37,879 nt of DNA, from positions 1-37,879 of the forward strand of contig CBDTXE010000001.1 in assembly GCA_965364395.1 (NCBI GenBank). The letters run 5' to 3'. Shown piece by piece: positions 150 to 20,820 of the stretch (positions are counted from its first letter, which is position 1; the number at the start of each line of letters is the position of its first letter). A model generated the notes under the pieces. That model was given only the letters and a program-made list of their open reading frames with translations, was not told the DNA's origin and did no database searches. The position numbers were made by a program, and so were the translations under genes. The DNA is from an uncultured bacterium (GTDB lineage: Bacteria; Patescibacteriota; Saccharimonadia; UBA4664; SCTI01).

Positions 150-1370
150 TCAGATTGCGTTGCTGAGTGCCGACAACGGTCCAAACACCGAGATGACAAT
201 AAATCCGACCATCGAGCCTAGGACAATGATGAGGATTGGTTCGATGATAGACGTAATGCCGGCGACCACCGAATCGACCTCTTTTTCATAAAAGCTGGCG
301 AGCTTTAATAGGATTTCATCCAGCTGTCCGGTTTCTTCGCCAACGGCTACCATCTGGCTGACGATCGGCGGGAACAGGTTTTGGCGTGACAGGGGCTCCG
401 AGATGCTTTTGCCGGCTTTAACCTCATTGGCAATTTTGTGCAGGCTGTCCTGGAAGACGGTGTTGCCCAGTGCCGTGGCGGTGGAGTTAAGGGCTTCCAG
501 TACCGAGATTCCGGAAGCCATCAAAGAACCAAAAGTACGCGCAAACCGCGCCACATTTACCTTGACGACAATTGGCCCAAATATGGGCATTTTTAGCATC
601 ATACGGTCAAGTACGCGTTTGCCGGTGGGCGTACGGGTGTAGCGCACACCAAGTATCACGGCCGTTGCTATGCCGGCGGCGATGAAAATGCCGTATGATG
701 TCAGGCTGTGGCTGATCAACAGCAGCAACTTTGTGTACCATGGCAACTGTCCGCCAAGACCCTCGAATATGGCCGATAGCTTGGGAACGATTACGGTCAT
801 GAGGAAGACAAACGCGCCAATGGTTACGGCGGTGATGACGCTGGGGTATATCATCGCGCTTTTCACCTTGCCGACAATTTCGGCGTCCTTTTCCTGCTGG
901 GTCGCCAAGCGCTCAAGCACTTGGTCCAGCATGCCGCCGGCCTCACCGGCCTTTACCATGTTGATATAGATGGACGGAAATACGTCAGGATGCTCAGCCA
1001 GGGCAGAGCTGAGAGTTGCTCCGCCTTCTACCCGTTTAGCGGCATCGGCCAGCACCTCGCGCAGGTGCTTGTTGGAGCTCTGTTTCTGAAGGATAGATAA
1101 TGACTGGGTGATCGGGACGCCGGCGTTGATCATGGTGGCAAATTGGCGTGAAAAAACGACTTTCTCGGTCAGTTTCACCTTATTGCCAAATTTTAATAGC
1201 GCAGTCAAACCTGCACCGCCCTGGGTGGGTTTGTTCTGGGTTTTTAGGAGGATTGGATGGAGGCCGCGCTCCATCAGGTTGGCAGCAGCGGTGGTCTGGT
1301 CAATGGCAAACACACTGCCTTTGCGGATAGTTCCGGCCTTGTCGCGGGCGGTATAGGCGTAGGTCGCCAT
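150..1370 (-). CDS. pilC: type IV pilus assembly platform protein PilC (GspF/T2SS F family)
   Basis: 406 aa with two GspF-type repeats and TM segments (e.g. KVKSAMIYPSVI..., GEETGQLDEIL). It sits 1 nt downstream of pilB. Confidence 0.9.
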   Translation of the reverse strand: MATYAYTARDKAGTIRKGSVFAIDQTTAAANLMERGLHPILLKTQNKPTQGGAGLTALLKFGNKVKLTEKVVFSRQFATMINAGVPITQSLSILQKQSSNKHLREVLADAAKRVEGGATLSSALAEHPDVFPSIYINMVKAGEAGGMLDQVLERLATQQEKDAEIVGKVKSAMIYPSVITAVTIGAFVFLMTVIVPKLSAIFEGLGGQLPWYTKLLLLISHSLTSYGIFIAAGIATAVILGVRYTRTPTGKRVLDRMMLKMPIFGPIVVKVNVARFARTFGSLMASGISVLEALNSTATALGNTVFQDSLHKIANEVKAGKSISEPLSRQNLFPPIVSQMVAVGEETGQLDEILLKLASFYEKEVDSVVAGITSIIEPILIIVLGSMVGFIVISVFGPLSALSNAI

Positions 1371-1371
1371 T

Positions 1372-3348
1372 TTATTCCTTGGTCACTCTGAAAATTTCTT
1401 CAATGGTGGTCATGCCACGAAGCGCTTTGATGAAGCCGTCTTGCTGCATGGTGAGCATGCCGTTCTTTACAGCTGCGGTTTGGATTTCCTCACTAGTGGC
1501 ATGGGTAATGATCATCTTCTGCAGTATTGGGTCAACTTCCAGTACTTCGTAGATTCCCATCCGGCCCTGGTATCCATGGCCGGCACATTGGTCGCAGCCA
1601 TCACCGGGGTGGTAGAGCACAAACTCGCCGGACTTTAAACTAGGGGCCTTGGCTTTGGTGTCCACGGCGGGCTCCGGGACATCGTCGGCGCCCGTAGCCT
1701 TGGCATCGCTGGCCGGGCGGTTGAGGATGTTGGGGTCGGCGGCAATTCGGTCCAAGATCGAGTCGCTCGTTTCAATTTTGTGCAGGGGTTCAATGACTTT
1801 TTTGCGGCTGCCGTGGCCAGCGGAGTCTGGCGGCTGCTCGGCTGGTTTGGCGGCCGGTTTTTCGGCCGGCTTCTCAAGCGGTGCCATGCCGGGCATGTTT
1901 TGGAGGTGCTTGACGGCGGCGGCGATATCAAACTCGCTCTTTATATCTTCCATCACTTGGCCTTCCGGCGTATACGCTACGCGACACCTGGAGCACAGCC
2001 GGCGGACTAGGCGCTGCCCAATTACGGTGTTGACGGTGGAAGCAATCAAAAACGGCTCAATATTCATGTCCAGCAGGCGGGGCAGGCAGGTAGCAGCGTT
2101 GTTGGTGTGTAGCGTGGATAAGACGACGTGGCCGGTGAGGGCGGCCTGGACTGCAAGGTCTGCCGTTTCGCCGTCGCGGACCTCCCCAACCATAATGACG
2201 TTAGGGTCCTGCCGCAGCAGAGCCCGCAGACCGCTGGCAAAGGTCATCCCCGCCTTGGGGTTTACCTGCGTTTGATTGACTCCGGAAACGCGGTATTCCA
2301 CCGGGTCTTCAACGGTAGAAATGTTAACTCCCGGGGTATTGAGCATACTGAGGACGCTATAAAGAGTAGTGGACTTTCCTGATCCGGTCGGCCCAGTAAC
2401 CAGCACCATGCCGTGCGGCTTATGGATGCCGCGGACGATGCGCTCAAGGGCGTTGCCCTCAAAACCTAGTTCTTCCAGCGTGAGGGCGCGTACCGATTCG
2501 TCCAGGATACGCATCACCACTTTTTCACCATCCATAATTGGCAACGTCGATACGCGCAGGGCGACGGTTTTTGAGCCGACGGCAAACTTGAAGCGCCCGT
2601 CTTGTGGTACGCGGTGTTCATCAATCTTGAGGTTGGCAAGGATTTTGATGCGGGAAACCACTGCCGCTAGGATAGGCTTGGGCAGGGTCATCATCTCGCG
2701 GAGGATGCCGTCGATACGGAATCTGACCTGAACCAGGTTTTCCCGGGGTTCAATGTGGACGTCGGACGCCCGCGATTTTACGGCGTACTCCAAGACGATG
2801 TTGACCGTCTTGGCGATAGGCGCATCTTCTGCCAAATCCTTGGCGCTGACTTCCTGCTGCTGTTGCTCTTCTTCGTCACTACTGTCTTTGATGGCCTTTG
2901 TAATTTCAGAAGAGATATTTCCCTTGTATTGGTCAAGGACCACCAGGATATCAGCCGGTGAGGCGAGGTATATTTTAATGTCCTGGCCAATCTGCTTGGC
3001 GATAAAATCAGCGGCCTGGAAGTCCTCGGGATCGGCCATGGCGAGCTGCATCGTCGAGCCTTCTTTCCCAAATACGACCGCCTGGTACTTACGGGCGATC
3101 CGTTCCGGTACCTTAATTAGTAGGTCGTGCGGGACTTTGGTTTCCTTTAACTCAACAAATGGCACGTCGATGTTTTCGGCGTACAGCTTTAAAAGCGTGG
3201 TTTCGGAAATTATTTTGCGCTTAATAATGGTTTGGAGAAGCGGCTCGTTGGTCTGCTCGTGCACCGTTTCAGCTTCTTTCAGCTGCTCAGGCTTGACCTT
3301 GTTGCTCGCTAGCAACAGATTTCTTAACTCACCGTCAGATATACGCAT
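1372..3348 (-). CDS. pilB: type IV pilus assembly ATPase PilB (GspE family) with an insertion in the C-terminal zinc module
   Basis: 658 aa. It has Walker A GPTGSGKST, Asp/His boxes (VEDPVE, STLHTN) and Walker B VIMVGEVRD. The tetracysteine pairs are C452xxC455 and C585xxC588. Confidence 0.92.
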   Translation of the reverse strand: MRISDGELRNLLLASNKVKPEQLKEAETVHEQTNEPLLQTIIKRKIISETTLLKLYAENIDVPFVELKETKVPHDLLIKVPERIARKYQAVVFGKEGSTMQLAMADPEDFQAADFIAKQIGQDIKIYLASPADILVVLDQYKGNISSEITKAIKDSSDEEEQQQQEVSAKDLAEDAPIAKTVNIVLEYAVKSRASDVHIEPRENLVQVRFRIDGILREMMTLPKPILAAVVSRIKILANLKIDEHRVPQDGRFKFAVGSKTVALRVSTLPIMDGEKVVMRILDESVRALTLEELGFEGNALERIVRGIHKPHGMVLVTGPTGSGKSTTLYSVLSMLNTPGVNISTVEDPVEYRVSGVNQTQVNPKAGMTFASGLRALLRQDPNVIMVGEVRDGETADLAVQAALTGHVVLSTLHTNNAATCLPRLLDMNIEPFLIASTVNTVIGQRLVRRLCSRCRVAYTPEGQVMEDIKSEFDIAAAVKHLQNMPGMAPLEKPAEKPAAKPAEQPPDSAGHGSRKKVIEPLHKIETSDSILDRIAADPNILNRPASDAKATGADDVPEPAVDTKAKAPSLKSGEFVLYHPGDGCDQCAGHGYQGRMGIYEVLEVDPILQKMIITHATSEEIQTAAVKNGMLTMQQDGFIKALRGMTTIEEIFRVTKE

Positions 3349-3482: not shown

Positions 3483-4883
3483 ATGAAATTCCTCCGTCTT
3501 GCCTGGCTAATGGTTGTCGTATGCTTCATGGCACTTCCCTGGATGGCCGGTGCCGCCAGTGGCTCCAGCGTGCTTATTGCCGAGGTTATGACCGCCAGTA
3601 CCGCAAGCGCGAGCGAGGAGTTTGTTGAGCTGCACAACCCCGGGGATGAAGCGCTGGAACTTTCCGGCTGGTCCGTGGAATACAAGTCGGCTACGTCCCC
3701 CGACATTCCGTCTAGCTGGACGCGCAAGGCAACCCTGGAGGGGGAAATTCCCCCGCACGGGTTCTATTTGGTCGCCCCACGGGCCCAATACCCCGTCAGC
3801 GATGCCGATTGGACGGCTAGCTTGGCGGCCGCGGGTGGGCATGTGAGGTTACGGGACCGGGATGGGGTGGAAGTTGACAGGGTTGGCTATGGCGCCACGG
3901 CTAACGCGGCGGAAGCCAGCCCGGCAGCCGCGCCGGCGGCGGGACAGAGCTTGGAGCGCCTTCCGGGCAAACAGAAAGAGAGCGGAGGCAATTCCCAGGA
4001 TACCGGCAACAACTCTTCAGACTTTCTCGTGCGACAGGCGCCAATGCCCCAGACCACCCAAAGCGACGCCGAGCCGCCCGTCGACCTTGTCGATGTTGAG
4101 GTTCCAATTGAGGAAGAAGCCGAACCATTGGCCGCAATCCGGCTAACCGAATTACTAATTAATCCAATGGCGCCGCTTTCCGACGACGCCGACGAATACA
4201 TCGAGCTCCATAACCCAAACGAAGTGGAGGTCGCCGTAGGCGGCTACCAGTTGCGCAATGGCGCCGAATTCCAAAAAAGCTATACGTTGCCTGATCAATC
4301 AATTCCCGCCCAGGGCTATCTGTTGCTAAACATCAAGACCACCAAGCTGGCGCTGACTAATACAGAGGGGGCGGTGCGCCTCCATGATGCTATTGGCGCC
4401 TTGATTGACCAAACCGACAATTACCAAGACGCCCCTGACGGACAGGCCTGGGCGCTTGCTGGAGAGACGTGGCAGTGGACTCTGCGGCCGACCCCTGGAC
4501 AGGCCAATGACATAGTGCCACCGCTAGGAGCCAACCTTCTGGCAGCTGCAACCACGGCGATAGCAGCAAAACCCAAGACAGCCAAGGCGGCTGCCAAAAC
4601 GACTGTAAGGGCGGCCACAAAGAAGGTTAGCCAGCCCAAGCAGTCATCTACAAAAAAGACTTCGGCCGCAAAGCCGGCGGCGCCTAAGACGCAGCCAGTG
4701 AAAGCGGTCGCCGCGCAGGTGCGACCAGCCATGTGGTTGATAATAGTGCTAGCAATCCTTACCATTACCTACGCACTTTATGAATTCCGACATGACATAC
4801 GAAACCGTTACCACATCCTCAAGCAGCACATCGGCACTGGGCGAAGCAATCGGCAGGCACCTGAAAGGGGGCGAAATGATTGA
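3483..4883 (+). CDS. secreted, C-terminally membrane-anchored protein with two lamin tail domains (LTD) and a Lys/Ala-rich stalk
   Basis: SD AAAGGAGA lies upstream and the N-terminus is a signal peptide (MKFLRLAWLMVVVCFMALPWMAGAAS). There are two LTD-like units (EFVELHNPGDEALELSGW..., EYIELHNPNEVEVAVGGY...). A KA-rich tract is followed by the TM helix PAMWLIIVLAILTITYALY. Confidence 0.8.
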   Translation: MKFLRLAWLMVVVCFMALPWMAGAASGSSVLIAEVMTASTASASEEFVELHNPGDEALELSGWSVEYKSATSPDIPSSWTRKATLEGEIPPHGFYLVAPRAQYPVSDADWTASLAAAGGHVRLRDRDGVEVDRVGYGATANAAEASPAAAPAAGQSLERLPGKQKESGGNSQDTGNNSSDFLVRQAPMPQTTQSDAEPPVDLVDVEVPIEEEAEPLAAIRLTELLINPMAPLSDDADEYIELHNPNEVEVAVGGYQLRNGAEFQKSYTLPDQSIPAQGYLLLNIKTTKLALTNTEGAVRLHDAIGALIDQTDNYQDAPDGQAWALAGETWQWTLRPTPGQANDIVPPLGANLLAAATTAIAAKPKTAKAAAKTTVRAATKKVSQPKQSSTKKTSAAKPAAPKTQPVKAVAAQVRPAMWLIIVLAILTITYALYEFRHDIRNRYHILKQHIGTGRSNRQAPERGRND

Positions 4884-5253: not shown

Positions 5254-5648
5254 TCCTTACTATCCGCAGTGACGACGATAACGCATCAGTTGGCCTGTAT
5301 AGTGCTGACGGAAGTGAACTGGCTAAAGATACTTGGGAAGCTGGCCGCGCCCTGTCTTCTACCTTGCTGCCCAAGATCCGCCAACTGCTGAGCAGCCAAA
5401 ATGCCGGCTGGGAGGGAATTACGGGAATAATTGTGTTTTCGGGTCCTGGGTCATTCACTGGCCTGCGTATCGGTGTGACGGTTGCAAATACAATTGCGTA
5501 CGCCCGAAAGGTGTCAATTGTAGGTGCCAGCGGGAGCGATTGGACTGCGCAGGGGGTGGCCCGGCTAGCCAACGGGGAGGACGACACCCAAGTTGTCCCC
5601 CGTTACGGCAGCGACCCTCATATTACGCGGCCTGATCAGCGTCCTTGA
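5250..5648 (+). CDS. tsaB: tRNA t6A37 biosynthesis protein TsaB, short form (N-terminal domain only)
   Basis: The motif GPGSFTGLRIGVTVANTIAYA is present. The start overlaps the tsaE stop as ATGA. It is 132 aa, against roughly 230 aa for typical TsaB. Confidence 0.75.
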   Translation: MILTIRSDDDNASVGLYSADGSELAKDTWEAGRALSSTLLPKIRQLLSSQNAGWEGITGIIVFSGPGSFTGLRIGVTVANTIAYARKVSIVGASGSDWTAQGVARLANGEDDTQVVPRYGSDPHITRPDQRP

Positions 5649-10022: not shown

Positions 10023-10673
10023 ATGAGACTCATGAAGACATCCTTAAACCAAAAGGGATTCACGGCTTTTGAATTAGTAATTGTTGTGGTTGCCTTGGCG
10101 GCAATTGGAGCTGCCGGGTACTTTGCCTACGAAGCAAGGCAGGATAAGACCGATTATTCTGTCCCAGCGCCCAAAAAATCTGCTGAAAAGCCAAAAGTAG
10201 ACGACAAGTACGAGGGCTGGAAAACGTATACTTCCTCTTTCAATAAAGTTTCCTTCAAGTATCCGGCTAACTGGCAGGTCAGCACACAACCGGCCGACTT
10301 GCCTAACGAAGGGCAGGTCAAAGTTAAACTGGCCTCCCCAAGTGGCTTTGTGATGCATTACAGTGAATGGGTAAATGGACTCGGCGGCGGGTGTGAAAAA
10401 AGCACTCCAAATATTGTAATTACAAAGACGCAAGAGCTAAAGGGAGCGCCTGGATTGTATCTCGTTGAAAATCCCGGAACCATCGCCCTGAGTAGTAGCA
10501 TTTCCAAGACTGGTGACACCGGCACATGTCTTGTGTATCCGTTTATTGACCAAAATAAGCAACTGATGTTTAGTTCATCGACCCAGTTTCTTCCCAATAC
10601 GACCAAGTTCCCGGCAAACCAAGAGAAAGATGTTGAAGAGGGCAGGCTGATTCTGTTAAGCTTCACGAAATAG
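10023..10673 (+). CDS. type IV pilin-like protein (prepilin N-terminal cleavage/methylation domain)
   Basis: MRLMKTSLNQKG|FTAFELVIVVVALAAIGAAGYFAY is a class III signal. Two C-terminal Cys residues could form a D-region disulfide. Confidence 0.8.
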   Translation: MRLMKTSLNQKGFTAFELVIVVVALAAIGAAGYFAYEARQDKTDYSVPAPKKSAEKPKVDDKYEGWKTYTSSFNKVSFKYPANWQVSTQPADLPNEGQVKVKLASPSGFVMHYSEWVNGLGGGCEKSTPNIVITKTQELKGAPGLYLVENPGTIALSSSISKTGDTGTCLVYPFIDQNKQLMFSSSTQFLPNTTKFPANQEKDVEEGRLILLSFTK

Positions 10674-11330: not shown

Positions 11331-12206
11331 TTATTTATAGCGCCGCCGGCCATACATGACGATAATCCCGATTAGTGCGAGGGGCAGGGAGAGCGACAAC
11401 GGGTTGCCTATCCAGACAGTAGTTTCTGTGCGCGCCAAGTTCATCCGCGTACCGCTGGTGCCGATATCCCAGGCAGACACGATAAGCCGCACAGGCTGCC
11501 AAAAAAATGAAGCTGGCTGCTCGACCACTTGATGGCCAGAAGAACCAGGCTGGATAGCCGATGCAAAGCGCATGTCGCGCGATGACCGGCCCAGTAAATG
11601 CGATGAAGTAATGGTAGCTGCCGGCTGCAGCACGGTGTTGCCGGTGTTGCGTAGAGTGACGGCCATCTGCCCATTGCGCTGGCGGACGTCGATCGTTGCG
11701 GATGGCAGCGCGGCGCCCGGAATAGTTAGGTAGACTCTGATTCCCAGCCGGCGAACAATGCGCACGCTGCCGCCCTGCTCGCCATCGACCGGCTCAATAA
11801 CGATACCGCCAAAATGCCGGCCAACTGGCGCGTTGGCATCTGACTGCATCTTGAAAGCAATGTCTTTAGATTGGCCTGGAGCCAGCTGCAGTACACTGCT
11901 TTCCAATGCGATCCATTTGCCCACGCCGACGCGCGGGGCAGCTTCCGGCAGCATGCCCAGGGCGCCGTCCGTTAATACTCTGGCGTCCACCGGGTAAATA
12001 CGTAGTTTGGTAGGAAAACCCGAGCTATTGCGAACGGTAATCGATCCGTGCACAGACTTATTTTTTGGGGCGGTCATGTCAAACCATGGGCGCTCAGACT
12101 GCTCCGCGCCCGCCGGAAAGGCGCTGATACCCGATGATTCAACGGCGTAGGTGTGGTGCGCGAGTCCAGCTACCATGGCGATAGAGACGGCGAAGCGGAC
12201 AATCAA
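11331..12206 (-). CDS. DUF916/DUF3324-like (WxL-interacting) cell-surface protein with a C-terminal TM anchor
   Basis: Signal peptide followed by beta-rich domains, with a layout like ITVRNSSGFPTKLRIYPVDA and GRHFGGIVIEP. The C-terminus is a TM helix plus RRRYK. It overlaps the upstream WxL-like gene by 4 nt. Confidence 0.6.
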   Translation of the reverse strand: MIVRFAVSIAMVAGLAHHTYAVESSGISAFPAGAEQSERPWFDMTAPKNKSVHGSITVRNSSGFPTKLRIYPVDARVLTDGALGMLPEAAPRVGVGKWIALESSVLQLAPGQSKDIAFKMQSDANAPVGRHFGGIVIEPVDGEQGGSVRIVRRLGIRVYLTIPGAALPSATIDVRQRNGQMAVTLRNTGNTVLQPAATITSSHLLGRSSRDMRFASAIQPGSSGHQVVEQPASFFWQPVRLIVSAWDIGTSGTRMNLARTETTVWIGNPLSLSLPLALIGIIVMYGRRRYK

Positions 12207-12979
12207 TTGAGGGTTTGGGTTATGGTCGCAGTGTAGGAGCCACTCTTAGATCCGGCCGGTATGGTGAGTGATAGCGTAGGTGTCACCGAATACTGTCCCA
12301 TTCCTGAGCCGGAGGAAGCCGACATTAGCGTCATGGGATCGGTATCGCTGGCAAATGCGCGAGACTGGCCGGAACTTACCCCCGCCGCCGCTCCGGCCAC
12401 TATTGCCACTACGGAAGGCGCGATGGTCAGGCCGGTTACGGGCAGGGTATCAATCGTAACTGTCCATTGGTCACCAACTGAAAACATGCCGGACGTGAAG
12501 TTGCCGGTGACTCCGCGAGTGCCAATCGAGGCCGAGGCCGTCGCCGTAGTATCGGTTTGGCTTTCAAGTCCGGTGACGGCGAACTTGGCAAAACCCATTG
12601 GCCCGCCAGCCGTTATGGTCACGGTGTACGCCCCGCCTGTGGACCCTGAATATGTGCCGCCCGACGAGAAGTTGCCGCCGCCGGAGCTGCCTGAGGTTCG
12701 TACGGCGCTACCGATGCGGGCAAACGAGGATGCCGTGGCAGTAACCGCCCAACCGGCACCGGTACCCCGGCCATCCGTGACAGACACCGTGCCCAGCGAC
12801 CCGCTGCTGGTTTGGGGCTGGGAAATATTGACCGTCACCGGCGACAACGAGGCGCTGGCCGGGGCTGCTAGGGTTAGCTGGCCCGGATTAATGGTTTGAT
12901 TGACGTTGGTGCTGGCGGCAAAGGCGGATGAACCCACCATCATGCAAGCAGCAACTATGGTTGCACGGATACGCTGCAT
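12203..12979 (-). CDS. WxL domain-like secreted surface protein
   Basis: SD AGGAG lies upstream and there is a signal peptide. GQLTL..., VTDGRGTGAGWAVTA (first WxL-type motif) and a C-terminal SLTIPAGSKSGSYTATITQTL match the WxL domain architecture. Confidence 0.6.
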   Translation of the reverse strand: MQRIRATIVAACMMVGSSAFAASTNVNQTINPGQLTLAAPASASLSPVTVNISQPQTSSGSLGTVSVTDGRGTGAGWAVTATASSFARIGSAVRTSGSSGGGNFSSGGTYSGSTGGAYTVTITAGGPMGFAKFAVTGLESQTDTTATASASIGTRGVTGNFTSGMFSVGDQWTVTIDTLPVTGLTIAPSVVAIVAGAAAGVSSGQSRAFASDTDPMTLMSASSGSGMGQYSVTPTLSLTIPAGSKSGSYTATITQTLN

Positions 12980-13098: not shown

Positions 13099-13175
13099 GC
13101 CCCTGTAGCTCAGTTGGATAGAGCAGAGGACTTCTAAGCCTAAGGTCGTAGGTTCGAATCCTACCGGGGGCGCCA
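13099..13175 (+). tRNA. tRNA-Arg (anticodon TCT), CCA encoded, with a weak anticodon stem
   Basis: The acceptor, D and T arms are canonical and the loop is CTTCTAA. Only 3 Watson-Crick pairs remain in the anticodon stem (G27.A43 and A31.G39 are mismatches). Confidence 0.8.
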
Positions 13176-13277
13176 TTTTTTGCCCGGTACGCGTTCAAGC
13201 GCAGTTTGAAAACGGACCGGGGGTAGTTACTCCGGTAGCTGCCTCCACCAGTAATCATTGCCAGAGAACGTGCTAAC

Positions 13278-13304
13278 GGGCCCTAGGGAATCTCCCCAGG
13301 GCCC
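13278..13304 (-). terminator. GC-rich hairpin (10 bp, one mismatch) just 3' of CDS 13313..13729, with no U-tract
   Basis: GGGCCCTaGGG-aatct-CCCcAGGGCCC. Confidence 0.45.
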
Positions 13305-13312
13305 GCTTGGTG

Positions 13313-13729
13313 CTAGGCGGCCTGCTTCAGGCCGGCTTCTTGCGCCGCCGACTCCCAGTCGATTGACTCGAGGAGCCTGCGCGCTTCTGCCTGCGTGCGC
13401 TGTTGGCGCTGCCGCTCGCCGACGTCGATGGCGATCTGAACGATCCGGTCGTAGACGTGGGTGCGCCGCATGTGCTCTAGTGCGTTCGCCCCGGATCGCA
13501 TGCCCGTGAGCTCGTTGACGAAGTCTTGGAGATCCTGGACGGCCTGCTGGTCGAACAGGGGGTCCTTGGTAGTCAAGGCGACTGCGCGAAGTTCGATGAT
13601 GCGGCTCTTGGCCGAGTTGATGGCGCAGTAGTCGGGCGCCGGCAGGTCGTCGTCCACGCGTTCGTCGCTCTCCGCGCCCGACCCGTACCGGCTCAGGATG
13701 CCCTCAAGGATCATGCTCGCGTCAGTCAT
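13313..13729 (-). CDS. hypothetical acidic helical protein (GC-rich, foreign-looking)
   Basis: The start is set at MTDASM, which has SD AAGGAG 7 nt upstream. It shows strong G/C third-position bias. No family was recognised. Confidence 0.65.
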   Translation of the reverse strand: MTDASMILEGILSRYGSGAESDERVDDDLPAPDYCAINSAKSRIIELRAVALTTKDPLFDQQAVQDLQDFVNELTGMRSGANALEHMRRTHVYDRIVQIAIDVGERQRQQRTQAEARRLLESIDWESAAQEAGLKQAA

Positions 13730-14023
13730 GATGTGCTCCTTACAAGAAGTTTTGAGTACAAAAAAGGACGCACTCGGCCCTAGCGCAGCTAGGAATAGAG
13801 TCGACGTCCCGTCAGGGTCTTGCCCTTTTCTTTCCACTGAAAGTCAATGTTAGGTTGTCAATATGGATACTTTAATGGCAATGCTTTGATAGTACAACCC
13901 TTTTTTGTTGCGTTCGTACATATTATTTGGACTTTGAGGTTGTTATATATGTCAATTAGCACAATAAGTGGAGAGCCCGACTATTCACTGATCTGTAAAT
14001 GTATGCCATAATGGTTCGCACGC

Positions 14024-14101
14024 GGCGAGTGTAGCTCAGTTGGTTAGAGCGTCGGTTTGTGGTACCGAAGGTCGTGGGTTCAAGACCCATCACTCGCCCC
14101 A
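14024..14101 (+). tRNA. tRNA-His (anticodon GTG) with encoded G-1 and CCA
   Basis: G-1 pairs with C73. Acceptor GCGAGTG/CACTCGC and anticodon arm TCGGT-TTGTGGT-ACCGA. Confidence 0.9.
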
Positions 14102-14252
14102 AAGCATTGATATTGATTCGTAGTACATACTTTAATTCCGTAGCTTTGACATTCCGGCACGGGAGATGCCCAATGGTTTGGTACGCCCACGGTGGAAACG
14201 ATCAGTAGGGCACGCAGAGGAAGTATAAGGTAATAACGTCATCTATCCCAGC

Positions 14253-14281
14253 TTGCAAACACATGCAAGTTATAGTATAAT
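14253..14281 (+). promoter_or_regulatory. near-consensus sigma70 promoter (TTGCAA-N17-TATAAT), with the inverted repeat CTTGCA-N6-TGCAAG overlapping the -35
   Basis: Read directly. It lies in an AT-rich spacer upstream of the GC-rich ORFs 14377..15535. Confidence 0.5.
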
Positions 14282-14376
14282 ATCGCAGACTATTGCCACT
14301 GAGGTTTTTGTGGCAACAGACGTACGCAACATCGACATATATTGGCGACCATGACAACAAGAGAGGGGTAGCTGCC

Positions 14377-14763
14377 ATGCATCCAGACTACGTCGAAGTG
14401 CTGGTGCAGTACGACCGCCGAGGCCACGTGCTACGGGTGTGGTTCAAGAACCTTCGCGTCACGCGCAGGCGGTGCGTCTACATCTACGCCTTCAGCGGCG
14501 AAACCAACGTTCAGAGCTTCAACGCGCACCTGCAAGGCGCCCTGCGGAGCCTGGTACACGGCAACATCGGCGGCTTCGTGGTTGGCGACAATCACCTTTT
14601 GGAAATCCACCTGGAGTCCACCAACAAGGCATTCCACGGCAAGGCCGTACGCGCCGCAGACGTGATTCGCCAGCATCTGCTGAGCCGAGGCAAGGAGGTG
14701 AATGCCTCCACCAGCGAAGGCCTGACCAAGACCAACCCGCTGACCGCAGTGGTGGCGAGCTAG
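14377..14763 (+). CDS. hypothetical protein (GC-rich island)
   Basis: ATG preceded by GAGAGGGG. High GC3. No family was recognised. The upstream TTG extension in the ORF track was rejected. Confidence 0.6.
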   Translation: MHPDYVEVLVQYDRRGHVLRVWFKNLRVTRRRCVYIYAFSGETNVQSFNAHLQGALRSLVHGNIGGFVVGDNHLLEIHLESTNKAFHGKAVRAADVIRQHLLSRGKEVNASTSEGLTKTNPLTAVVAS

Positions 14764-14794
14764 GTCCCCGACTTACCCAGAAAGAGGTGAAGCC

Positions 14795-15535
14795 ATGCCC
14801 GTGCTGACCATCTATGGCATGCCGCCGGATCTCAAGGACAGCTCTGCCCTCACCCACCTGGTGCTGGAGGAGCTGCCTCGGGCTGTGGCAGCAGTGGAGG
14901 AGCTCGGAGTCAAGCCGGGCCAGGTGACGGCGTTCGTGCCGTCCGACCTTGTGAACGAGGCTCTCGGCGAGGAAATCATCGTCTTCATCGAGGGCCTGTG
15001 GATGCGCAAGGAGCGCACACCGGAGGTCCGGCAGCGGCTCGCCGACGCGGTACTGGACTGCATGCGCCGCTTCGCCGAGGAACACGTTTTCAGGTGCGAG
15101 ATGATTGAGGTGATCCCTCGGTCCCAGCGCCCGGAGGACGGGTTTGCTGACTGGCGGAAGGAGCCGGTTACCACCGCAACGCCACTCCCCCAGGTGGCCA
15201 GCTTCTCAACTTCCAGACCGGATCCCACGGCCGACATCAGGGCTTTCCAGGAGCAGGTGCAAAGCTTTGCGCGCGAGGCGTTGACCGAACTGAGGTCCAG
15301 ACTTGAGTCTGGCGAGCGCCAATTCACGATTGAGCGCCGATTCGACCGCTCGGCATGCCGTGAAGACGGCCTCGGCCGATACGTGCGGCTGAATTGGTTC
15401 CAGCGGCTCTTCTACGACATCGTCGATCCCGTTTGGGGTATGCAGGGGGTGGAAGCGTACGCCGACTACGCCAGCAAGGATGCTGACTCGATGGAAGAAG
15501 ACAACACGATGGTCTACAGGCTGTCGGTGGCCTGA
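14795..15535 (+). CDS. hypothetical protein; the N-terminal ~115 aa may be a fused tautomerase-superfamily-like domain (tentative)
   Basis: SD AAGAGGTGA lies upstream. The protein starts MPVLTIYG (Pro after the initiator Met) and is followed by two beta-alpha-beta-like units. The C-terminal half is unknown. Confidence 0.65.
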   Translation: MPVLTIYGMPPDLKDSSALTHLVLEELPRAVAAVEELGVKPGQVTAFVPSDLVNEALGEEIIVFIEGLWMRKERTPEVRQRLADAVLDCMRRFAEEHVFRCEMIEVIPRSQRPEDGFADWRKEPVTTATPLPQVASFSTSRPDPTADIRAFQEQVQSFAREALTELRSRLESGERQFTIERRFDRSACREDGLGRYVRLNWFQRLFYDIVDPVWGMQGVEAYADYASKDADSMEEDNTMVYRLSVA

Positions 15536-15537
15536 CA

Positions 15538-15580
15538 GGGCCCGAAGGAGTGATCACTGATGATCTTGGCCTTCGGGCCC
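15538..15580 (+). terminator. 11 bp perfect GC-rich hairpin after CDS 14795..15535
   Basis: GGGCCCGAAGG-21 nt loop (contains the palindrome AGTGATCACT)-CCTTCGGGCCC, followed by TCCTTTG. Confidence 0.5.
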
Positions 15581-15613
15581 TCCTTTGCGTCTGACATCTA
15601 TAGCGCGCAGCAC

Positions 15614-15642
15614 TTGACACAATAATACGCTTATGTTAAGGT
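15614..15642 (+). promoter_or_regulatory. sigma70-like promoter (TTGACA-N17-TAAGGT) upstream of the methyltransferase leader
   Basis: Read directly, in an AT-rich spacer. Confidence 0.4.
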
Positions 15643-15792
15643 ATATGCACCTTAATTGAAAGGAAAGTTATGGACACAGTTAACCTGTGCAACAAATAAC
15701 GGTTCCTGGTGATAAGCTTCCAACATCATTATTAGGAGTTTGTCACCGGGAACCGCTACGGAGTTCCCCTGACATACAAAGGAGGCCATGCA

Positions 15793-16512
15793 ATGGCTGA
15801 CGAGTATGCGGACCAGGCATCGGTATACGATGCCATCTATACCAACATGAAGGATTACCGCCGTGAGGCGGAACGGGTACGCGAGCTGATAGCGGCGCAT
15901 AGCCGCATCCCGGTTAAGACGCTGCTGGATGTGGCGTGCGGGACCGGCTTGCACGACCAGTTTCTGGCCGGGCACTATGAGCTCGAGGGGCTGGACTTCA
16001 GTCCGGCGATGCTCACCGAGGCGCGAAAGCGACTGCCCAACGTGGTTTTCCACCAAGGTGACATGAGCGGCTTTGACCTCGGCAAGCAGTACGACGCCGT
16101 CACCTGCCTGTTCAGTGCCATCGGCCACATGACTACCTTGGACATGATGCGGGCGGCAACCAGTTACATGGCTGCCCATCTCAAGCCCGGCGGCGTGCTC
16201 ATCATCGAGCCGTTCATCGACCCGAGCGACTGGGTACGGGGTAAGGTCAGCGTTGACCTGGTGCCAGGCAAGAAGATTGCCCGCGTGACGGAATCCAGGC
16301 TCGATGGGCATATCGCCCGCCTGGACATGCGTTTCTTCACCGACTGGGACGAGAAGGCAGGTACCGCCAGGTACTTCCGTGCCCATCACGATGTCGCCAT
16401 GTATACGAGGGACGAGTTCACGGCAGCCTTCAATGACGCCGGGCTGGACGTCTCGTATGACACGGCGGGCCTAATGGGCCGCGGTCTCTATATCGGCGTC
16501 AAGAACTCCTAG
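15793..16512 (+). CDS. class I SAM-dependent methyltransferase, TylM1/DesVI-like (aminosugar N,N-dimethyltransferase family)
   Basis: SD AAGGAGG lies upstream. Motifs are DY..EA, LLDVACGTG, GLD.S..ML, GDM..F.LG, AVTC.FS.IGH and C-terminal GRGL. The whole length aligns to TylM1 as I recall it. Confidence 0.88.
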   Translation: MADEYADQASVYDAIYTNMKDYRREAERVRELIAAHSRIPVKTLLDVACGTGLHDQFLAGHYELEGLDFSPAMLTEARKRLPNVVFHQGDMSGFDLGKQYDAVTCLFSAIGHMTTLDMMRAATSYMAAHLKPGGVLIIEPFIDPSDWVRGKVSVDLVPGKKIARVTESRLDGHIARLDMRFFTDWDEKAGTARYFRAHHDVAMYTRDEFTAAFNDAGLDVSYDTAGLMGRGLYIGVKNS

Positions 16513-16520
16513 CCGTTTCC

Positions 16521-16566
16521 GGTGCGCCCCGCCATACCCGTCCGCGGGTCCCTGGCGGGGCACGCC
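16521..16566 (+). terminator. composite GC-rich hairpin after the methyltransferase, with no U-tract
   Basis: GCCCCGCC...GGCGGGGC forms 8 perfect bp plus an outer extension. An inner stem ACCCG-tccg-CGGGT is also present. Confidence 0.45.
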
Positions 16567-16574
16567 AAAAGTTT

Positions 16575-16583
16575 TGATATAAT
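16575..16583 (+). promoter_or_regulatory. extended -10 promoter element (TGaTATAAT), about 210 nt upstream of rnj
   Basis: Read directly. No good -35 was seen. Confidence 0.35.
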
Positions 16584-16792
16584 CGCCGCAGTTGAGAGTA
16601 ACTCAGCGTGACCCATCCGGTCTCGATGAGCTGTTCTCAACCTTTAAGAGGAAATGAGAAAAGTATCTCGCAGCCGTTCTTAACGGCATAGCTTCCGCTG
16701 CGCATGCAGCTGTCTCAAGGCTTTATCCTTGCGACTCGTGAATATGAATAGTAAGTAAATCCGGATATAAGAATTCCGGTAGAAAGACGTAT

Positions 16793-18454
16793 ATGAATAA
16801 AACTAAACTACGCATCATCCCGCTAGGCGGCGTTGGTGAAATTGGCAAGAACATGAACGCGCTGGAATACGGCGACGACATTATAATCCTGGATCTTGGA
16901 TCTAAGTTTGCGTCGGATGACGAACCTGGCGTGGATGCTATCCTGCCTGACACCCGTTACCTTGAGCGCAACAAACATAAGATTCGAGGCGCAGTTATAA
17001 CCCATGGGCACATGGACCATATTGGCGGCGTTGGCCATTTTCTGAAAAAGTTCCCGGTGCCGGTTTTTGGGGCTCCGTTTACTATTGCCATGATCAAAAG
17101 GCAGCTTGAAGAGGCTGGATTGCACTTCAAACCACAACTACGAGTAATTAATCCGGACACGCATGAAAGGGTGCAATTGGGCCAATTTAATATTGAGTTG
17201 GTCCGTGTCGGCCATCCCATTCCTGACGCGACTGCTATCGTGATTCGTACGCCTGTCGGCGTGGTTGTCGATACAGGCGATTGGCGTTTCGAGGATGACC
17301 CAATCATCGGTCGCCCAATGGACATAGCGCGTTTTAAGGAGCTTGCCCAGGAAGGGGTAACACTGTTGATGGGCGACAGCACCAACGCGTTGGTTCCGGG
17401 TTCCACGGCAAAAGAAAGAGACATTGTGCCCGCATTTGACGAGCTGTTTAGCCGGGCACCGGGACGCGTCATACTGTCGATGTTTGCCAGCAACATTTTT
17501 AGGATCCAGCTTGCAATCAACGCTACGGCTAAGAGCGGACGAAAGCTGGTAGTGACCGGTCGAAGCATGCTGGCAAACATCGAGACAGCCATAAATACCG
17601 GCCACCTTAAAGTGCCGGCTGGGCTGATAGCCCGTACCGCAGACGGTATTGCGAGTTCAAGGATCACTATTCTGACCACCGGATCACAAGGCGAGCCTAA
17701 TTCAGGTCTTTGGCGCATGGCTGCCGGAGAGCATAAGGCTGTGAAGATTAAGCCAGGCGACTCGGTGATCCTGAGCTCCAGTATCATTCCGGGAAACTGG
17801 GAAAGGATCAATGAACTGGTTGACTCGTTGATGCGAGAGGGCGCGAAGGTCTACCAGCACAGTACCCGGCACTTGGACGGGGCAGGTATTTTGCATGCTT
17901 CCGGCCATGCCAGCCGAGAGGATTTGATGGCATTGCTGAAGCTATTGAAGCCAAAACACCTTGTGCCAATCCACGGAAACTACTCCATGCAGCTGGCGCA
18001 TGCCAGTATTGCTGGGAGGGCGGGCATTGGGGATAACAATATTTTCATTCTCAATATCGGAAACGTATTGGAGCTTTCCAGTAAGAGCGTAATGCTTGGA
18101 GAGCCAGTAGAGTCAGGTGAAATTTATCTACAGGGCTTGTTGGAAGGACGCTTGGGGGACGAAGTAATACATGAACGTGTGAAATTGAGTAGCGAAGGAG
18201 TCGTAATTGTAAACGCAGTTGTCAGTGCTACCAGCGGAAAGCTCATGGGTAGGCCAAGTATCGTTTCCCGCGGGTTCGTCCACATGAAAGACAACCAGCC
18301 ATTGATTAACCAAATTGCTTTGGAATCACGGAAGGCTATCGAAAAAGCCTGCGGTGTTTCAGTTGAGATTTCCGTACGTGAGTACATTGGAGACCAAATC
18401 AAAAAGGCAACCGGCCGCCAGCCCTTAGTGCTGACTGCCATCACGAAGGTATAA
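16793..18454 (+). CDS. rnj: ribonuclease J
   Basis: Metallo-beta-lactamase motif HGHMDHIGG, a beta-CASP region and the typical RNase J length and C-terminal domain. Confidence 0.93.
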   Translation: MNKTKLRIIPLGGVGEIGKNMNALEYGDDIIILDLGSKFASDDEPGVDAILPDTRYLERNKHKIRGAVITHGHMDHIGGVGHFLKKFPVPVFGAPFTIAMIKRQLEEAGLHFKPQLRVINPDTHERVQLGQFNIELVRVGHPIPDATAIVIRTPVGVVVDTGDWRFEDDPIIGRPMDIARFKELAQEGVTLLMGDSTNALVPGSTAKERDIVPAFDELFSRAPGRVILSMFASNIFRIQLAINATAKSGRKLVVTGRSMLANIETAINTGHLKVPAGLIARTADGIASSRITILTTGSQGEPNSGLWRMAAGEHKAVKIKPGDSVILSSSIIPGNWERINELVDSLMREGAKVYQHSTRHLDGAGILHASGHASREDLMALLKLLKPKHLVPIHGNYSMQLAHASIAGRAGIGDNNIFILNIGNVLELSSKSVMLGEPVESGEIYLQGLLEGRLGDEVIHERVKLSSEGVVIVNAVVSATSGKLMGRPSIVSRGFVHMKDNQPLINQIALESRKAIEKACGVSVEISVREYIGDQIKKATGRQPLVLTAITKV

Positions 18455-19531: not shown

Positions 19532-19605
19532 TGCCTTGTCGTCTAACGGTAGGACGCCTGACTCTGGATCAGGTAATTATGGTTCGAATCCATGCGAGGC
19601 AGCCA
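19532..19605 (+). tRNA. tRNA-Gln (anticodon CTG), CCA encoded
   Basis: U1:A72 pair, anticodon arm CCTGA-CTCTGGA-TCAGG and T loop GGTTCGAATCC. Confidence 0.88.
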
Positions 19606-19608
19606 TAG

Positions 19609-19685
19609 TCGGAGGTAGACAAATTGGTAAAGTCGCCTGGCTTTGACCCAGGAGCTTGAAGGTTCAAGTCCTTCCCTCCGAGCCA
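19609..19685 (+). tRNA. tRNA-Gln (anticodon TTG), CCA encoded
   Basis: U1:A72 pair, anticodon arm CCTGG-CTTTGAC-CCAGG and T arm GAAGG-TTCAAGT-CCTTC. It lies 3 nt after the previous tRNA. Confidence 0.88.
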
Positions 19686-20169: not shown

Positions 20170-20820
20170 ATGCATTCGTGTGACAACCTCGACGGAAGGA
20201 CTCCTTTGTACGAAACGTATTCGGAAATCGTGCTGAAGTACCTGCTGGGCCCGTTGCTGGCACTGGCGTGCTTGCTCGCCGTGCGCGATCTCATCAAGGA
20301 TCGGGAGCGCAGTGTCTGGGCCTGGCTGCTGGTCGGCCTGACAATGCTCTATCCACTCGGAAAGCTCTGCGCCTATTGGCAGGTGGGGCCAAACGCGTTC
20401 CGGTGGTGGATGGGCGACTTCGGCTCCATCGCATTCTACGGAATGTTCGTGGCGCAATGGGTTGCCGTCCGCCGTACCGGTACCTACGACGTTTTCCGCG
20501 TCTGGTTGCCCGTTGGTGCCACTGTGCTGGCAGCAGCATGCATCTTGGAAGGACTGCAGTACGTCGCTCAGGCCCAGAACTCGGGTGGTCTGTCCGCCCG
20601 CTGGGACCCCATCGACTTGCTCAGTTACTTCCTGGGTTTCGCGGTCGCAACCTTGTTGGTTTGGCTGCACCAGCGCCAGTACGGCCGCCGGCTTGCCGAG
20701 TGGGAGGCGCAGGTGGCCATGGCCAAGCAGGAGCGCTCGCGTGAACAGGCGCAGCGCGCCGAATCACGTCGGCCGCGGGGGAAGCAGAAGAAGCGCCGCC
20801 ACGGCACAAGCCGCCGTTAG
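20170..20820 (+). CDS. hypothetical 5-TM membrane protein with a highly basic C-terminal tail (GC-rich, foreign-looking)
   Basis: About five hydrophobic helices, then a QERSREQAQRAESRRPRGKQKKRRHG tail. GC3 is very high. An alternative TTG start at 20206 has SD GGAAGGA. Confidence 0.62.
   Translation: MHSCDNLDGRTPLYETYSEIVLKYLLGPLLALACLLAVRDLIKDRERSVWAWLLVGLTMLYPLGKLCAYWQVGPNAFRWWMGDFGSIAFYGMFVAQWVAVRRTGTYDVFRVWLPVGATVLAAACILEGLQYVAQAQNSGGLSARWDPIDLLSYFLGFAVATLLVWLHQRQYGRRLAEWEAQVAMAKQERSREQAQRAESRRPRGKQKKRRHGTSRR

Follow-up and report, generated by a model that had tools for sequence, protein, structure and literature searches.

What lies between the tRNA-Arg(TCT) gene and the RNase J gene rnj on contig CBDTXE010000001.1 (assembly GCA_965364395.1), and did it arrive there as one piece? 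The window, which is the whole stretch of 37,879 nt analysed here, carries four open reading frames (ORFs) between these flanks: ORF1 (13313..13729, minus strand), ORF2 (14377..14763), ORF3 (14795..15535) and a gene for a class I S-adenosylmethionine (SAM)-dependent methyltransferase (MT; 15793..16512), the latter three on the plus strand. A first-pass annotation had suggested an island of possible actinobacterial origin, in which captured genes had come under promoters native to the recipient and might form one functional module. Taken as a single recent capture of four linked genes and tested by comparison with other contigs, that reading was found to be very improbable. On balance, the stretch from tRNA-Arg to rnj is probably a mosaic of separately gained accessory genes in a Saccharimonadales-like genome (Patescibacteria). 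Within this mosaic, MT would belong to an autonomous cassette of ∼950 bp (15614-16566) consisting of a promoter, a 9-codon upstream open reading frame (uORF), a structured leader, a TylM1/DesVI-like N-methyltransferase and a terminator. Hot spots of accessory genes next to tRNA genes occur commonly, and that Saccharibacteria receive genes by transfer is well established; the literature on transfer from hosts to Saccharibacteria with a GC signature yielded general background only.

Conservation of the methyltransferase cassette

The conserved unit starts at a promoter of the form TTGACA-17-TAAGGT with TG at −15/−14 (15614..15642, plus strand), which is conserved in contigs L002, L005 and L008. 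The uORF follows at 15658..15699 (Shine-Dalgarno sequence GAAAGGA at 15658-15664, ATG at 15670, peptide MDTVNLCNK, TAA at 15697-15699) and is in turn followed by the structured leader, a putative RNA switch, at 15700..15792. The MT Shine-Dalgarno sequence AAGGAGG (15779-15785) precedes the MT start codon at 15793. Downstream of the gene, which encodes 239 aa, the unit is closed by TAGCCGTTTCCGG and a GC-rich terminator hairpin (16521-16534/16553-16566, within 16513..16566). This 3′ end was conserved, with compensatory variation, in L089, L002, L008 and L087; similarity ended after it, and a U-tract followed in L087.

The leader was present 5′ of MT in seven contigs (the window, L002, L005, L008, L087, L089 and L090) and absent from MT homologues on contigs of 58-66% GC (L091-L095). 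When all contigs were compared with each other by BLASTN, pairwise homology was confined to positions ∼15658-16562 of the window, with three exceptions: rnj (window and L089), a PLD-tRNA-Glu region (L002 and L008) and a small ORF (L087 and L089). Minus-strand tblastn matches between the MT contigs and the window were discarded as antisense shadows of MT. Because the promoter, uORF, leader and terminator accompany MT from one context to the next, the proposed capture under native promoters had to be given up. The proposed four-gene module fared no better: the four genes never co-occur elsewhere and are distributed over three separate transcription units.

The surroundings of the cassette differ from contig to contig. 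In L002, ∼80 nt separate its start from tRNA-Glu(CTC). The L008 cassette is set apart from tRNA-Glu(CTC) by a 3.5-kb serine recombinase/Replic_Relax/DUF7249 module, and genes for DUF5677, SRAP, a Y-family polymerase, a KAP NTPase and a type IV secretion system (T4SS) coupling protein are found downstream. Within 9174-10780 of L002 and 1-15017 of L008, the two contigs share the PLD-tRNA-Glu(CTC) region, with 76% identity over 577 nt. The L008 element resembles an integrative element of the conjugative or mobilisable kind, and its host is probably Patescibacteria-like; no convincing long direct repeats were found in this contig. L087 (9273-10901), from a Saccharimonadales metagenome-assembled genome (MAG), carries the cassette followed, after ∼530 nt, by the 5′ half of a 23S rRNA gene (1297 bits), with which the contig ends. 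In all, the cassette is found at four or more genomic positions, and at one or more of them an integrative element carries it as cargo.

The region shares with tRNA-linked islands and integrative (conjugative) elements the presence of deviant, orphan-rich accessory genes directly beside tRNAs, and the L008 cassette likewise comes after tRNA-Glu and genes for a serine recombinase and a relaxase-like protein, a T4SS coupling protein being encoded on its 3′ side. Unlike such elements, the region in the window lacks a recombinase, att repeats and a single boundary, and its pieces differ in age. Pfam and NCBIfam scans of 13176-16792 revealed no integrase, recombinase or transposase domain, and no att-like direct repeats extending from a tRNA 3′ end were found in the region, just short repeats at chance level; on these absences, including that of a transposase and of flanking direct repeats, the first-pass annotation was right. 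A phage origin of the cassette was rejected, as the leader motif was absent from IMG/VR, no phage record matched the cassette and PHROG matches concerned the generic methyltransferase (MTase) only. A plasmid origin was likewise rejected, the cassette matching just ∼200 nt of Streptomyces MT genes at 68-77%. None of the four proteins had relatives on IMG/VR viral contigs.

An orthologous junction with rnj

The right flank of the region, rnj (16793..18454, plus strand; identified by Pfam), also provides information on the host. Its best RNase J matches among GTDB representatives were Saccharibacteria/Saccharimonadales MAGs, at just 39-47% identity. From these matches the host looks Saccharibacteria-like, a possibility raised in the first-pass annotation. 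Scans of GTDB representatives and JGI metagenomes yielded no RNase J closer than 47% over its full length (58% for short fragments), and no other window genes were syntenic in the RNase J-matched loci.

Shared synteny, which the RNase J route failed to provide, was obtained through the MT search. In L089, which carries an MT of 60% identity, rnj starts 108 nt after MT and its product is 79% identical over 270 aa. The DNA of L089 and of the window could be aligned base for base from the 3′ end of MT into rnj, the terminator stem CCCCGCCA/TGGCGGGG included. The supposed island is therefore bounded on its right by an inherited orthologous junction. Upstream of MT in L089, ORF1 to ORF3 and tRNA-His are absent and unrelated small genes are found instead. 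Since L089 has MT without ORF1 to ORF3, MT is older in the lineage and the side comprising ORF1, tRNA-His and ORF2-ORF3 is the variable part. The cassette would thus be an old resident of this lineage, as a relative shares its junction with rnj. A single island is hard to reconcile with an MT-rnj junction that exists without the other three genes and with regulatory DNA that travels with MT.

Several further observations were made around this junction. L089 and L087 share the small ORF mentioned above (82-84 aa), which ties the lineage to Saccharimonadales. Directly 3′ of this ORF, near-threshold matches to the type III hammerhead ribozyme (RF00008, gathering score 48.5) were detected at 3580-3634 (+) of L089 (45.3 bits, E 1.2e-6) and at 5589-5643 (+) of L087 (37 bits, E 2.5e-4); the L089 match ends 10 nt before the MT leader. 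The 5′ untranslated region of rnj in the window (16567-16792) belongs to a leader of 280 nt as compared to 108 nt in L089, which lacks ∼170 nt of it; the region had no Rfam match. An extended −10 sequence, TGATATAAT, occurs within this 5′ untranslated region after the cassette terminator.

Structure of the leader RNA

The leader, ∼140 nt in length, was analysed as an alignment of its seven copies, which are not fully independent. RNAalifold yielded a consensus with helix P1 (15700-15716 with 15739-15755), which encloses a variable P2 hairpin, and a helix pairing GUUCCCCUG with the MT Shine-Dalgarno sequence. Paired cells amounted to 92.5% in the consensus and to 37-51% in slid controls. Pairs with changes on both sides numbered 4/29 (a value reached by 15/500 shuffles), and the covariation score was reached by 3/500 shuffles. 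An alternative helix inside the structured leader, P3, joins GGGAAC (15748-15753) to GUUCCC (15763-15768); it is invariant and 97.6% pairable. For the window leader, the minimum free energy had a z of −4.4. A covariance model run on 683 kb retrieved the seven MT-linked copies only, at 89-147 bits. No Rfam 15 family matched the leader at E ≤ 1 (13100-16900), at E ≤ 0.01 (whole window) or at E ≤ 0.1 (the six other leader loci).

The uORF was present in all five full-length leaders, with a Shine-Dalgarno sequence 6-7 nt before the ATG and a length of 8-9 codons, the sole indel being 3 nt long. In each of these five, the stop codon (TAA in four, TAG in one) ends exactly 1 nt before P1. Third positions of the uORF vary in 8/8 codons, as compared to 5/8 for positions 1 and 2. 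When the 5′ arm of P1, the region that a terminating ribosome would occupy, was masked in silico, P3 formed in 6/7 leaders; unmasked, it was absent in 6/7. The expectation that masking of P1 would uniformly free the MT Shine-Dalgarno sequence was not borne out, its predicted exposure changing inconsistently in single-sequence folds.

The following mechanism is suggested by this arrangement. In the default fold, the long P1 hairpin would form directly after the uORF stop codon. If a ribosome paused at the uORF end, or was slow to terminate there, it would open up the 5′ arm of P1, and the freed GGGAAC could then pair with the invariant GUUCCC to give P3, remodelling the region of the MT ribosome-binding site. 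MT would in that case be made only upon a translation-linked signal, such as a drug, a metabolite or the state of tRNA charging.

Many SAM-dependent enzymes are riboswitch-controlled, and the leader might instead be a metabolite-binding riboswitch of an undescribed class, responding for example to SAM, S-adenosylhomocysteine or a substrate or product of MT, with an incidental or secondary uORF. The mean identity of the switch core (86%) does exceed that of the coding sequence (66%), even at codon position 2 (78%); L087 has the RNA without a uORF, and P1 and P2 show covariation. We nevertheless consider a riboswitch unlikely. The leader matched no Rfam family and consists of one long, near-perfect hairpin with a variable apex (54% identity), lacking a conserved junction or bulge that could serve as a pocket. 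Most of the conservation falls within the two arms competing for GGGAAC, and start, length, frame and stop position of the uORF are kept in 5/5 full leaders. Competing arms that are conserved, combined with an apex that varies and covaries, fit an alternative-pairing attenuator better than an aptamer.

Such attenuators have precedents. The closest in logic are leader-peptide translational attenuators of inducible resistance genes (ermC/ermB, cat86/cmlA and B. subtilis yxjB/tlrB; PMC8274638, PMC6851288). The enzymes under their control are rRNA methyltransferases or drug-modifying enzymes. The cassette likewise has a short uORF with its own Shine-Dalgarno sequence directly 5′ of mutually exclusive helices, a first helix arm within reach of a ribosome at the uORF end, and a methyltransferase as the regulated gene on a self-contained, mobile transcription unit. 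It differs in that the enzyme is of the TylM1/DesVI-like small-molecule type and not an Erm or RlmA rRNA methyltransferase, and in that its leader is unrelated to those of the known systems, both in sequence and by Rfam; the uORF counts 8-9 codons and is missing in L087, and an inducer, stalling and sequestration of the Shine-Dalgarno sequence are predictions. By analogy, the leader may apply erm/cat-like attenuator logic to a non-rRNA methyltransferase, and we infer ribosome sensing and the direction of regulation from this likeness.

Codon usage of the four genes

The first-pass annotation had based its island on codon usage, and on this point most of its description stood. All four ORFs are present, each preceded by a strong Shine-Dalgarno sequence. 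Their G+C content at third codon positions (GC3) was 0.862 for ORF1, 0.820 for ORF2, 0.801 for ORF3 and 0.791 for MT. The 33 remaining genes of the window average 0.640 (sd 0.067, range 0.44-0.78), which puts the four at z values of 2.2-3.3. The four rank 1-4 of 37 and are all adjacent, for which our own combinatorics, assuming exchangeable gene values, gives a chance of ∼34/66045 (5e-4). Lysine is encoded by AAG in 23/23 cases (0.60 in other window genes), phenylalanine by TTC at 0.87 (0.40 elsewhere), isoleucine by ATC at 0.84 (0.44 elsewhere) and glycine by GGA at 0.02 (0.19 elsewhere). The four ORFs use a distinct codon dialect, and the deviation is essentially limited to third positions.

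Other measures of composition did not set the region apart. Overall GC of the window is 55.5%; bulk GC of the four ORFs was 0.59-0.63, and other 500-nt windows reach up to 0.64. At fourfold sites, z of the four ORFs dropped to 1.4-2.1, and the tetranucleotide distance of the region in 3-kb windows was no outlier. The comparator used earlier, rnj, has a GC3 of 0.56, at the low end of the window. The spacers of the region, described as AT-rich, do have a GC content of 0.42-0.51, but so has the rest of the intergenic DNA of the window (0.512 when pooled). Thus GC3 and codon use deviated, but bulk GC and the tetranucleotide profile did not. Outside the region, the orphan ORF at 20206-20820 (+) has a GC3 of 0.78 and no Pfam or NCBIfam match, and lies directly 3′ of a tandem tRNA-Gln pair (19532-19685). 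Orphans with G/C-ending codons adjoining tRNAs may be a recurring pattern of this genome.

Could the four genes be native, with a gene-specific preference for G/C-ending codons (through expression, mRNA stability or biased gene conversion) within a broad GC3 range and without any horizontal transfer? The breadth of the GC3 range in the window (0.44-0.78, with genes at 28-37 kb up to 0.70-0.75), the low fourfold z values and the inconspicuous tetranucleotide profile are in line with this. So is the persistence of a GC3-rich MT in the window and in L089 next to an rnj with saturated synonymous sites, which is unexpected for a neutral leftover of transfer. Still, we regard native origin as distinctly unlikely. 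The four genes are the adjacent top 4/37, three of them are orphans or near-orphans, and the cassette is found in unrelated positions, including an element with recombinase, relaxase and T4SS genes. In hosts of 63-66% GC, moreover, MT shows no GC3 excess over neighbouring genes, so that the bias belongs to the gene and not to any host.

Comparison of hosts supported this point. GC3 of MT was above that of its neighbours in L002, L005, L087, L089 and L090 (z 1.9-4.2) and not in L008 (z 0.95). In hosts of 63-66% GC, MT had a GC3 of 0.72-0.74, at or below that of its neighbours, and in L093 (58% GC) of 0.65. Overall, MT stays at ∼0.62-0.84 across hosts with genes of GC3 0.46-0.87. In both the window and L089, MT is 0.15-0.20 above host genes, and fourfold sites of rnj are saturated between the two (0.31 vs. 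0.27 expected). As MT has kept its GC3 across hosts and across the junction with a saturated rnj, high GC3 is a property of the gene and not a clock of recent capture. Caution is warranted accordingly: since a high GC3 can persist at an orthologous junction beside a gene with saturated synonymous sites, codon bias alone neither dates nor proves transfer. Frequent exchange, allele replacement, selection or biased conversion could each account for the persistence.

The cassette would behave as a horizontally circulating gene that keeps its GC3-rich composition whatever the host. As to the suggested foreign origin, horizontal movement of MT is credible, given its GC3 above neighbours in 5/6 other contigs and its unrelated neighbourhoods, but a single recent capture was not supported. 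In an unbootstrapped neighbour-joining tree, L089 branched first in a core clade of leader-bearing MTs, followed by L005, L090, L002 and the window. The sister group mixed leader-bearing L008 and L087 with leaderless MTs from the high-GC contigs L091/L092 and from Solirubrobacteraceae. On this branching order, MT may plausibly have been exchanged between hosts of high and of moderate GC.

The methyltransferase and its relatives

MT matched Pfam Methyltransf_25 (6.9e-17) and related families, and its GxGxG SAM motif is kept (LLDVACGTG, aligned in 3bxo, 6uk5 and 3pfg). Residues 6-236 of 239 aligned to residues 6-237 of DesVI, including the C-terminal cap domain over the substrate (3bxo, E 4.2e-49). 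Full-length matches were also obtained to CalS10 and TylM1 (E from 1e-45 down to 4e-49) and to KedS8, in support of the TylM1/DesVI-type enzyme recognized in the first-pass annotation. H112 and F107 of MT correspond to the active-site H123 and to F118 of TylM1. Y5, invariant in 77/77 homologues, is one position off TylM1 Y14 in the HMMER alignment. H123 and Y14 of TylM1 are reportedly residues that were probed by mutagenesis.

The EPWWFPE motif of DesVI, CalS10 and TylM1 reads EPFIDPS in MT, and EP[FW][IL]xP in 77/77 of the nearest environmental homologues. EPFIDPS was rejected as a marker of the leader-bearing clade, because EP[FW][IL]xP is general to the whole environmental subfamily. At E ≤ 1e-20, 4882 MT homologues were found. 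MT thus falls within a large, uncharacterised subfamily from the environment, a sister group of the actinomycete enzymes that have been characterised.

With the dTDP-aminosugar N-methyltransferases TylM1, DesVI and CalS10 (3pfg, 3bxo, 6uk5), MT shares full length, the GxGxG motif, the His and the Phe. It differs in sequence (∼40-48% identity), in having EPFIDPS for EPWWFPE and in lacking dehydratase and aminotransferase neighbours: no NDP-sugar dehydratase or aminotransferase was found near MT in the window or in any of the other contexts compared. Because it lacks both the pathway context and the WW motif, MT was classified as a putative N-methyltransferase of this fold and was not assigned to the sugar dimethyltransferases. 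Its most likely activity would be N-methylation of a small amine, whose amino group may be carried by a nucleotide-sugar-like compound. A role in defence was rejected, the sole PADLOC match being the generic MTase domain of mad2.

The relatives of MT form a graded series of 79, 71, 70, 65 and 60% identity, followed by a plateau at ∼50% that includes the Saccharimonadales MAG (L087; 51% identical, same leader). The closest of them (60-79%) are on contigs of 46-55% GC, one of which shares rnj with the window. Leaderless relatives are found at 54-56% identity on contigs of 63% GC and at 48% in Solirubrobacteraceae, and those of Streptomyces are at ∼40%. On Streptomyces plasmids, such ∼40% identical homologues adjoin DegT/EryC1 aminotransferases. 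The Solirubrobacteraceae homologue (MAG GCA_036009505.1; L094 154-8708/L095) is located directly after ArdC, HTH_17 and phage-type integrase genes. Genes for two glycosyltransferases, an ATP-grasp enzyme and another methyltransferase come next; here the enzyme may belong to a cluster for glycan modification that borders an integrated element.

This distribution bears on the proposed capture of one linked island from an actinobacterial host. A GC3-rich codon dialect is typical of high-GC bacteria, the MT family is best characterised in actinomycetes and the host of the window is Saccharibacteria-like. The leaderless relatives at 54-56% and 48% identity, on contigs of 63% GC and in Solirubrobacteraceae, also speak for such a source, as does the sole homologue of ORF3, from a contig of 63% GC (GC3 0.90). 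The closest relatives of MT are, however, on contigs of moderate GC, and an actinobacterial origin could not be demonstrated. The Streptomyces homologues are distant and stand beside DegT aminotransferases that are absent from the window, ORF1 and ORF2 have no homologue in the well-sampled Actinobacteria, and the four genes are nowhere else together.

ORF1, ORF2 and the tautomerase-like ORF3

The remaining genes form two further units. ORF1 (138 aa, GC3 0.86) is transcribed from the minus strand and preceded by an AAGGAG Shine-Dalgarno sequence. Just 3′ of its stop codon is a GC-rich hairpin without U-tract, GGGCCCUAGGG/CCCCAGGGCCC (13278..13305, minus strand), read from the sequence. On the plus strand, tRNA-His(GTG), with encoded G-1 and CCA (14025..14101; ARAGORN), separates ORF1 from the ORF2-ORF3 operon. 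This operon has a promoter-like sequence, TTGCAA-17-TATAAT (14253..14281, 10/12 matches), 5′ of ORF2 (128 aa, GC3 0.82), which is followed by ORF3 (246 aa) after a 31-nt gap, and is closed by AGGGCCCGAAGG/CCUUCGGGCCCU, a perfect 12-bp hairpin (15537..15581). With the cassette terminator, each transcription unit thus ends in a GC-rich hairpin, as had been noted (13278-13305, 15537-15581 and 16521-16566). The near-consensus sigma70 promoters claimed for the spacers, TTGCAA-17-TATAAT and TTGACA-17-TAAGGT, are present, but their number is at shuffle level (3 promoter-like sites vs. 2.1 ± 1.2).

ORF1 found itself only in a full HMMER scan of 1.84e9 representatives, and ORF2 itself only among 5.8e9 proteins. 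Neither these two nor ORF3 had a Pfam (even at E ≤ 10), NCBIfam, PHROG or PADLOC match, and no paralogy among the orphans was detected. The AlphaFold2 model of ORF2 was unusable (predicted local distance difference test, pLDDT, 41.5). ORF1 and ORF2 are true orphans, as stated earlier; ORF3, listed with them, has one partial homologue and a tautomerase-like N-domain.

The ORF3 homologue, P0002, was encoded on a contig of 2.2 kb and is 57-58% identical over residues 1-124. Fourfold sites between the two N-domains were at the level expected at random (0.38 vs. 0.36), while 58% of residues are kept, which indicates that the N-domain is under purifying selection. ORF3 begins with MPVLT, and its Pro2, R71 and R74 are invariant in P0002. 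The AlphaFold2 model (mean pLDDT 65.7) has most of the N-domain at 67-91 and a linker of low confidence at 111-144. The predicted topology, b3-7, a17-32, b45-47, b60-66, a76-97 and b103-108, represents two beta-alpha-beta units. In a Foldseek search of the PDB, the top 50 matches were all of the tautomerase superfamily (best E 1.8e-3, probability ∼1.0, TM(target) 0.41-0.67) and included fused 4-OT, CHMI, MIF/D-DT, cis-CaaD, Cg10062 and 1u9d. Pfam tautomerase profiles gave no match to ORF3 even at E ≤ 10, its N-domain had no PDB sequence match, a fold search of BFVD returned nothing and a plasmid search was negative.

An N-terminal proline (Pro-1 after removal of Met) is a hallmark of the tautomerase superfamily, the catalytic residues of cis-CaaD include Pro-1, Arg-70 and Arg-73, and nearly all members consist of one or two beta-alpha-beta units only (PMC5818174). 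With this superfamily (fused 4-OT 6BLM, linker proteins 5UNQ/5UIF, cis-CaaD, CHMI and MIF), ORF3 shares a predicted duplicated beta-alpha-beta fold of ∼120 residues. R71 and R74, 70 and 73 in the mature protein and located before the second helix, agree with Arg-70 and Arg-73 of cis-CaaD in residue number only. ORF3 differs in having no sequence-profile match, marginal structural E-values and an extra C-terminal alpha/beta domain, whose ∼100 residues had no assignable fold. In its model, the N-domain (residues 1-∼120) appears tautomerase-like by fold and Pro-1; by sequence profile it is not a member. ORF2-ORF3 is a separate operon of an orphan and a tautomerase-superfamily-like protein fused to a C-domain. 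ORF1 is a lone orphan, and ORF1 to ORF3 are probably later additions from GC-richer, unsampled sources.

Flanking genes and assembly

The left flank of the variable region is tRNA-Arg(TCT) (13099..13175, plus strand; ARAGORN, Rfam tRNA 64.7 bits). Around tRNA-His, a 23-nt imperfect direct repeat (78% identical) was noted at 13867-13889 and 14127-14149, at −158 and +26 of the gene, overlapped by a 15-nt inverted repeat at 13874-13888/14100-14114; both perhaps occur by chance. The window also encodes type IV pilus assembly proteins (PilC-like T2SSF and PilB-like T2SSE), a prepilin-like protein and a WxL/WxL-interacting surface protein pair (within 150-3348, 10032-10673 and 11331-12979). These pilus and WxL genes are consistent with an episymbiotic, Saccharibacteria-like lifestyle.

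As the contig is derived from a metagenome and composition changes sharply at gene boundaries, GC-rich reads of another organism could in principle have been joined into it. Such a chimera is hardly credible. A second assembly record (L001) has identical gene order over 20.7 kb at 99.995% identity and has different ends. Moreover, the MT-rnj junction occurs independently in L089, and the spacers are host-like and contain a normal tRNA-His.

Weighing of the proposed mosaic and regulatory cassette

Several points weigh against a mosaic with a leader-switched, mobile cassette. Taxonomy is available for 3/7 leader contigs only, and some of the variety in position might stem from rearrangements inside a single lineage and not from transfer. 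With MT-rnj synteny and saturated synonymous sites in rnj, high GC3 is no simple mark of recent transfer. The evidence that ORF1 and ORF2 are functional consists of frame-specific GC3 and Shine-Dalgarno sequences, and the fold of ORF3 comes from a moderate model (pLDDT 65.7, two-sequence alignment) with marginal E-values and no Pfam match. As to the leader, there are only seven copies, partly non-independent, with compensatory changes limited to 4/29 pairs. P3 and lower P1 never vary, which leaves the switch itself without covariation support, and masking of P1 produced no consistent change in Shine-Dalgarno exposure. L087 retains the RNA without a uORF, so that the uORF may be dispensable.

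A hairpin, CACAG/CUGUG, can also be drawn inside the uORF (15680-15694), which likewise counts against the proposed switch. Apparently compensating versions are ACAGG/CCUGU in L005, ACAGAU/AUUUGU in L008 and UAUGUA/UGCAUA in L089. To judge from these variants, constraint on the uORF region may act at the RNA level in addition to the coding level.

Implications for Saccharibacteria

The GC3 patch itself is ordinary; the conserved cassette of uORF and putative RNA switch represents a new form of a known regulatory principle. Beyond the mosaic, we tentatively put forward a reading that we hold to be rather unlikely as a whole: the cassette might be an inducible, circulating small-molecule-modifying determinant of episymbiotic Saccharibacteria, in which a TylM1-like MT, switched on by a ribosome-sensing leader peptide and an RNA switch of an undescribed class, serves in detoxification of, or resistance to, a compound of the host or community, and not in biosynthesis. 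If so, the trigger would be a translation-targeting compound or an amine from the (actinobacterial) host or the community. The leader would then represent a new family of cis-regulatory RNA in Patescibacteria, as well as the first attenuator of the erm/cat style found on a methyltransferase that does not act on rRNA.

If the leader senses the state of the ribosome, the erm/cat paradigm would be extended to a small-molecule methyltransferase. To our knowledge, very few regulators are known in Patescibacteria, and the leader would constitute a rare, experimentally tractable case of conditional gene control in this group.

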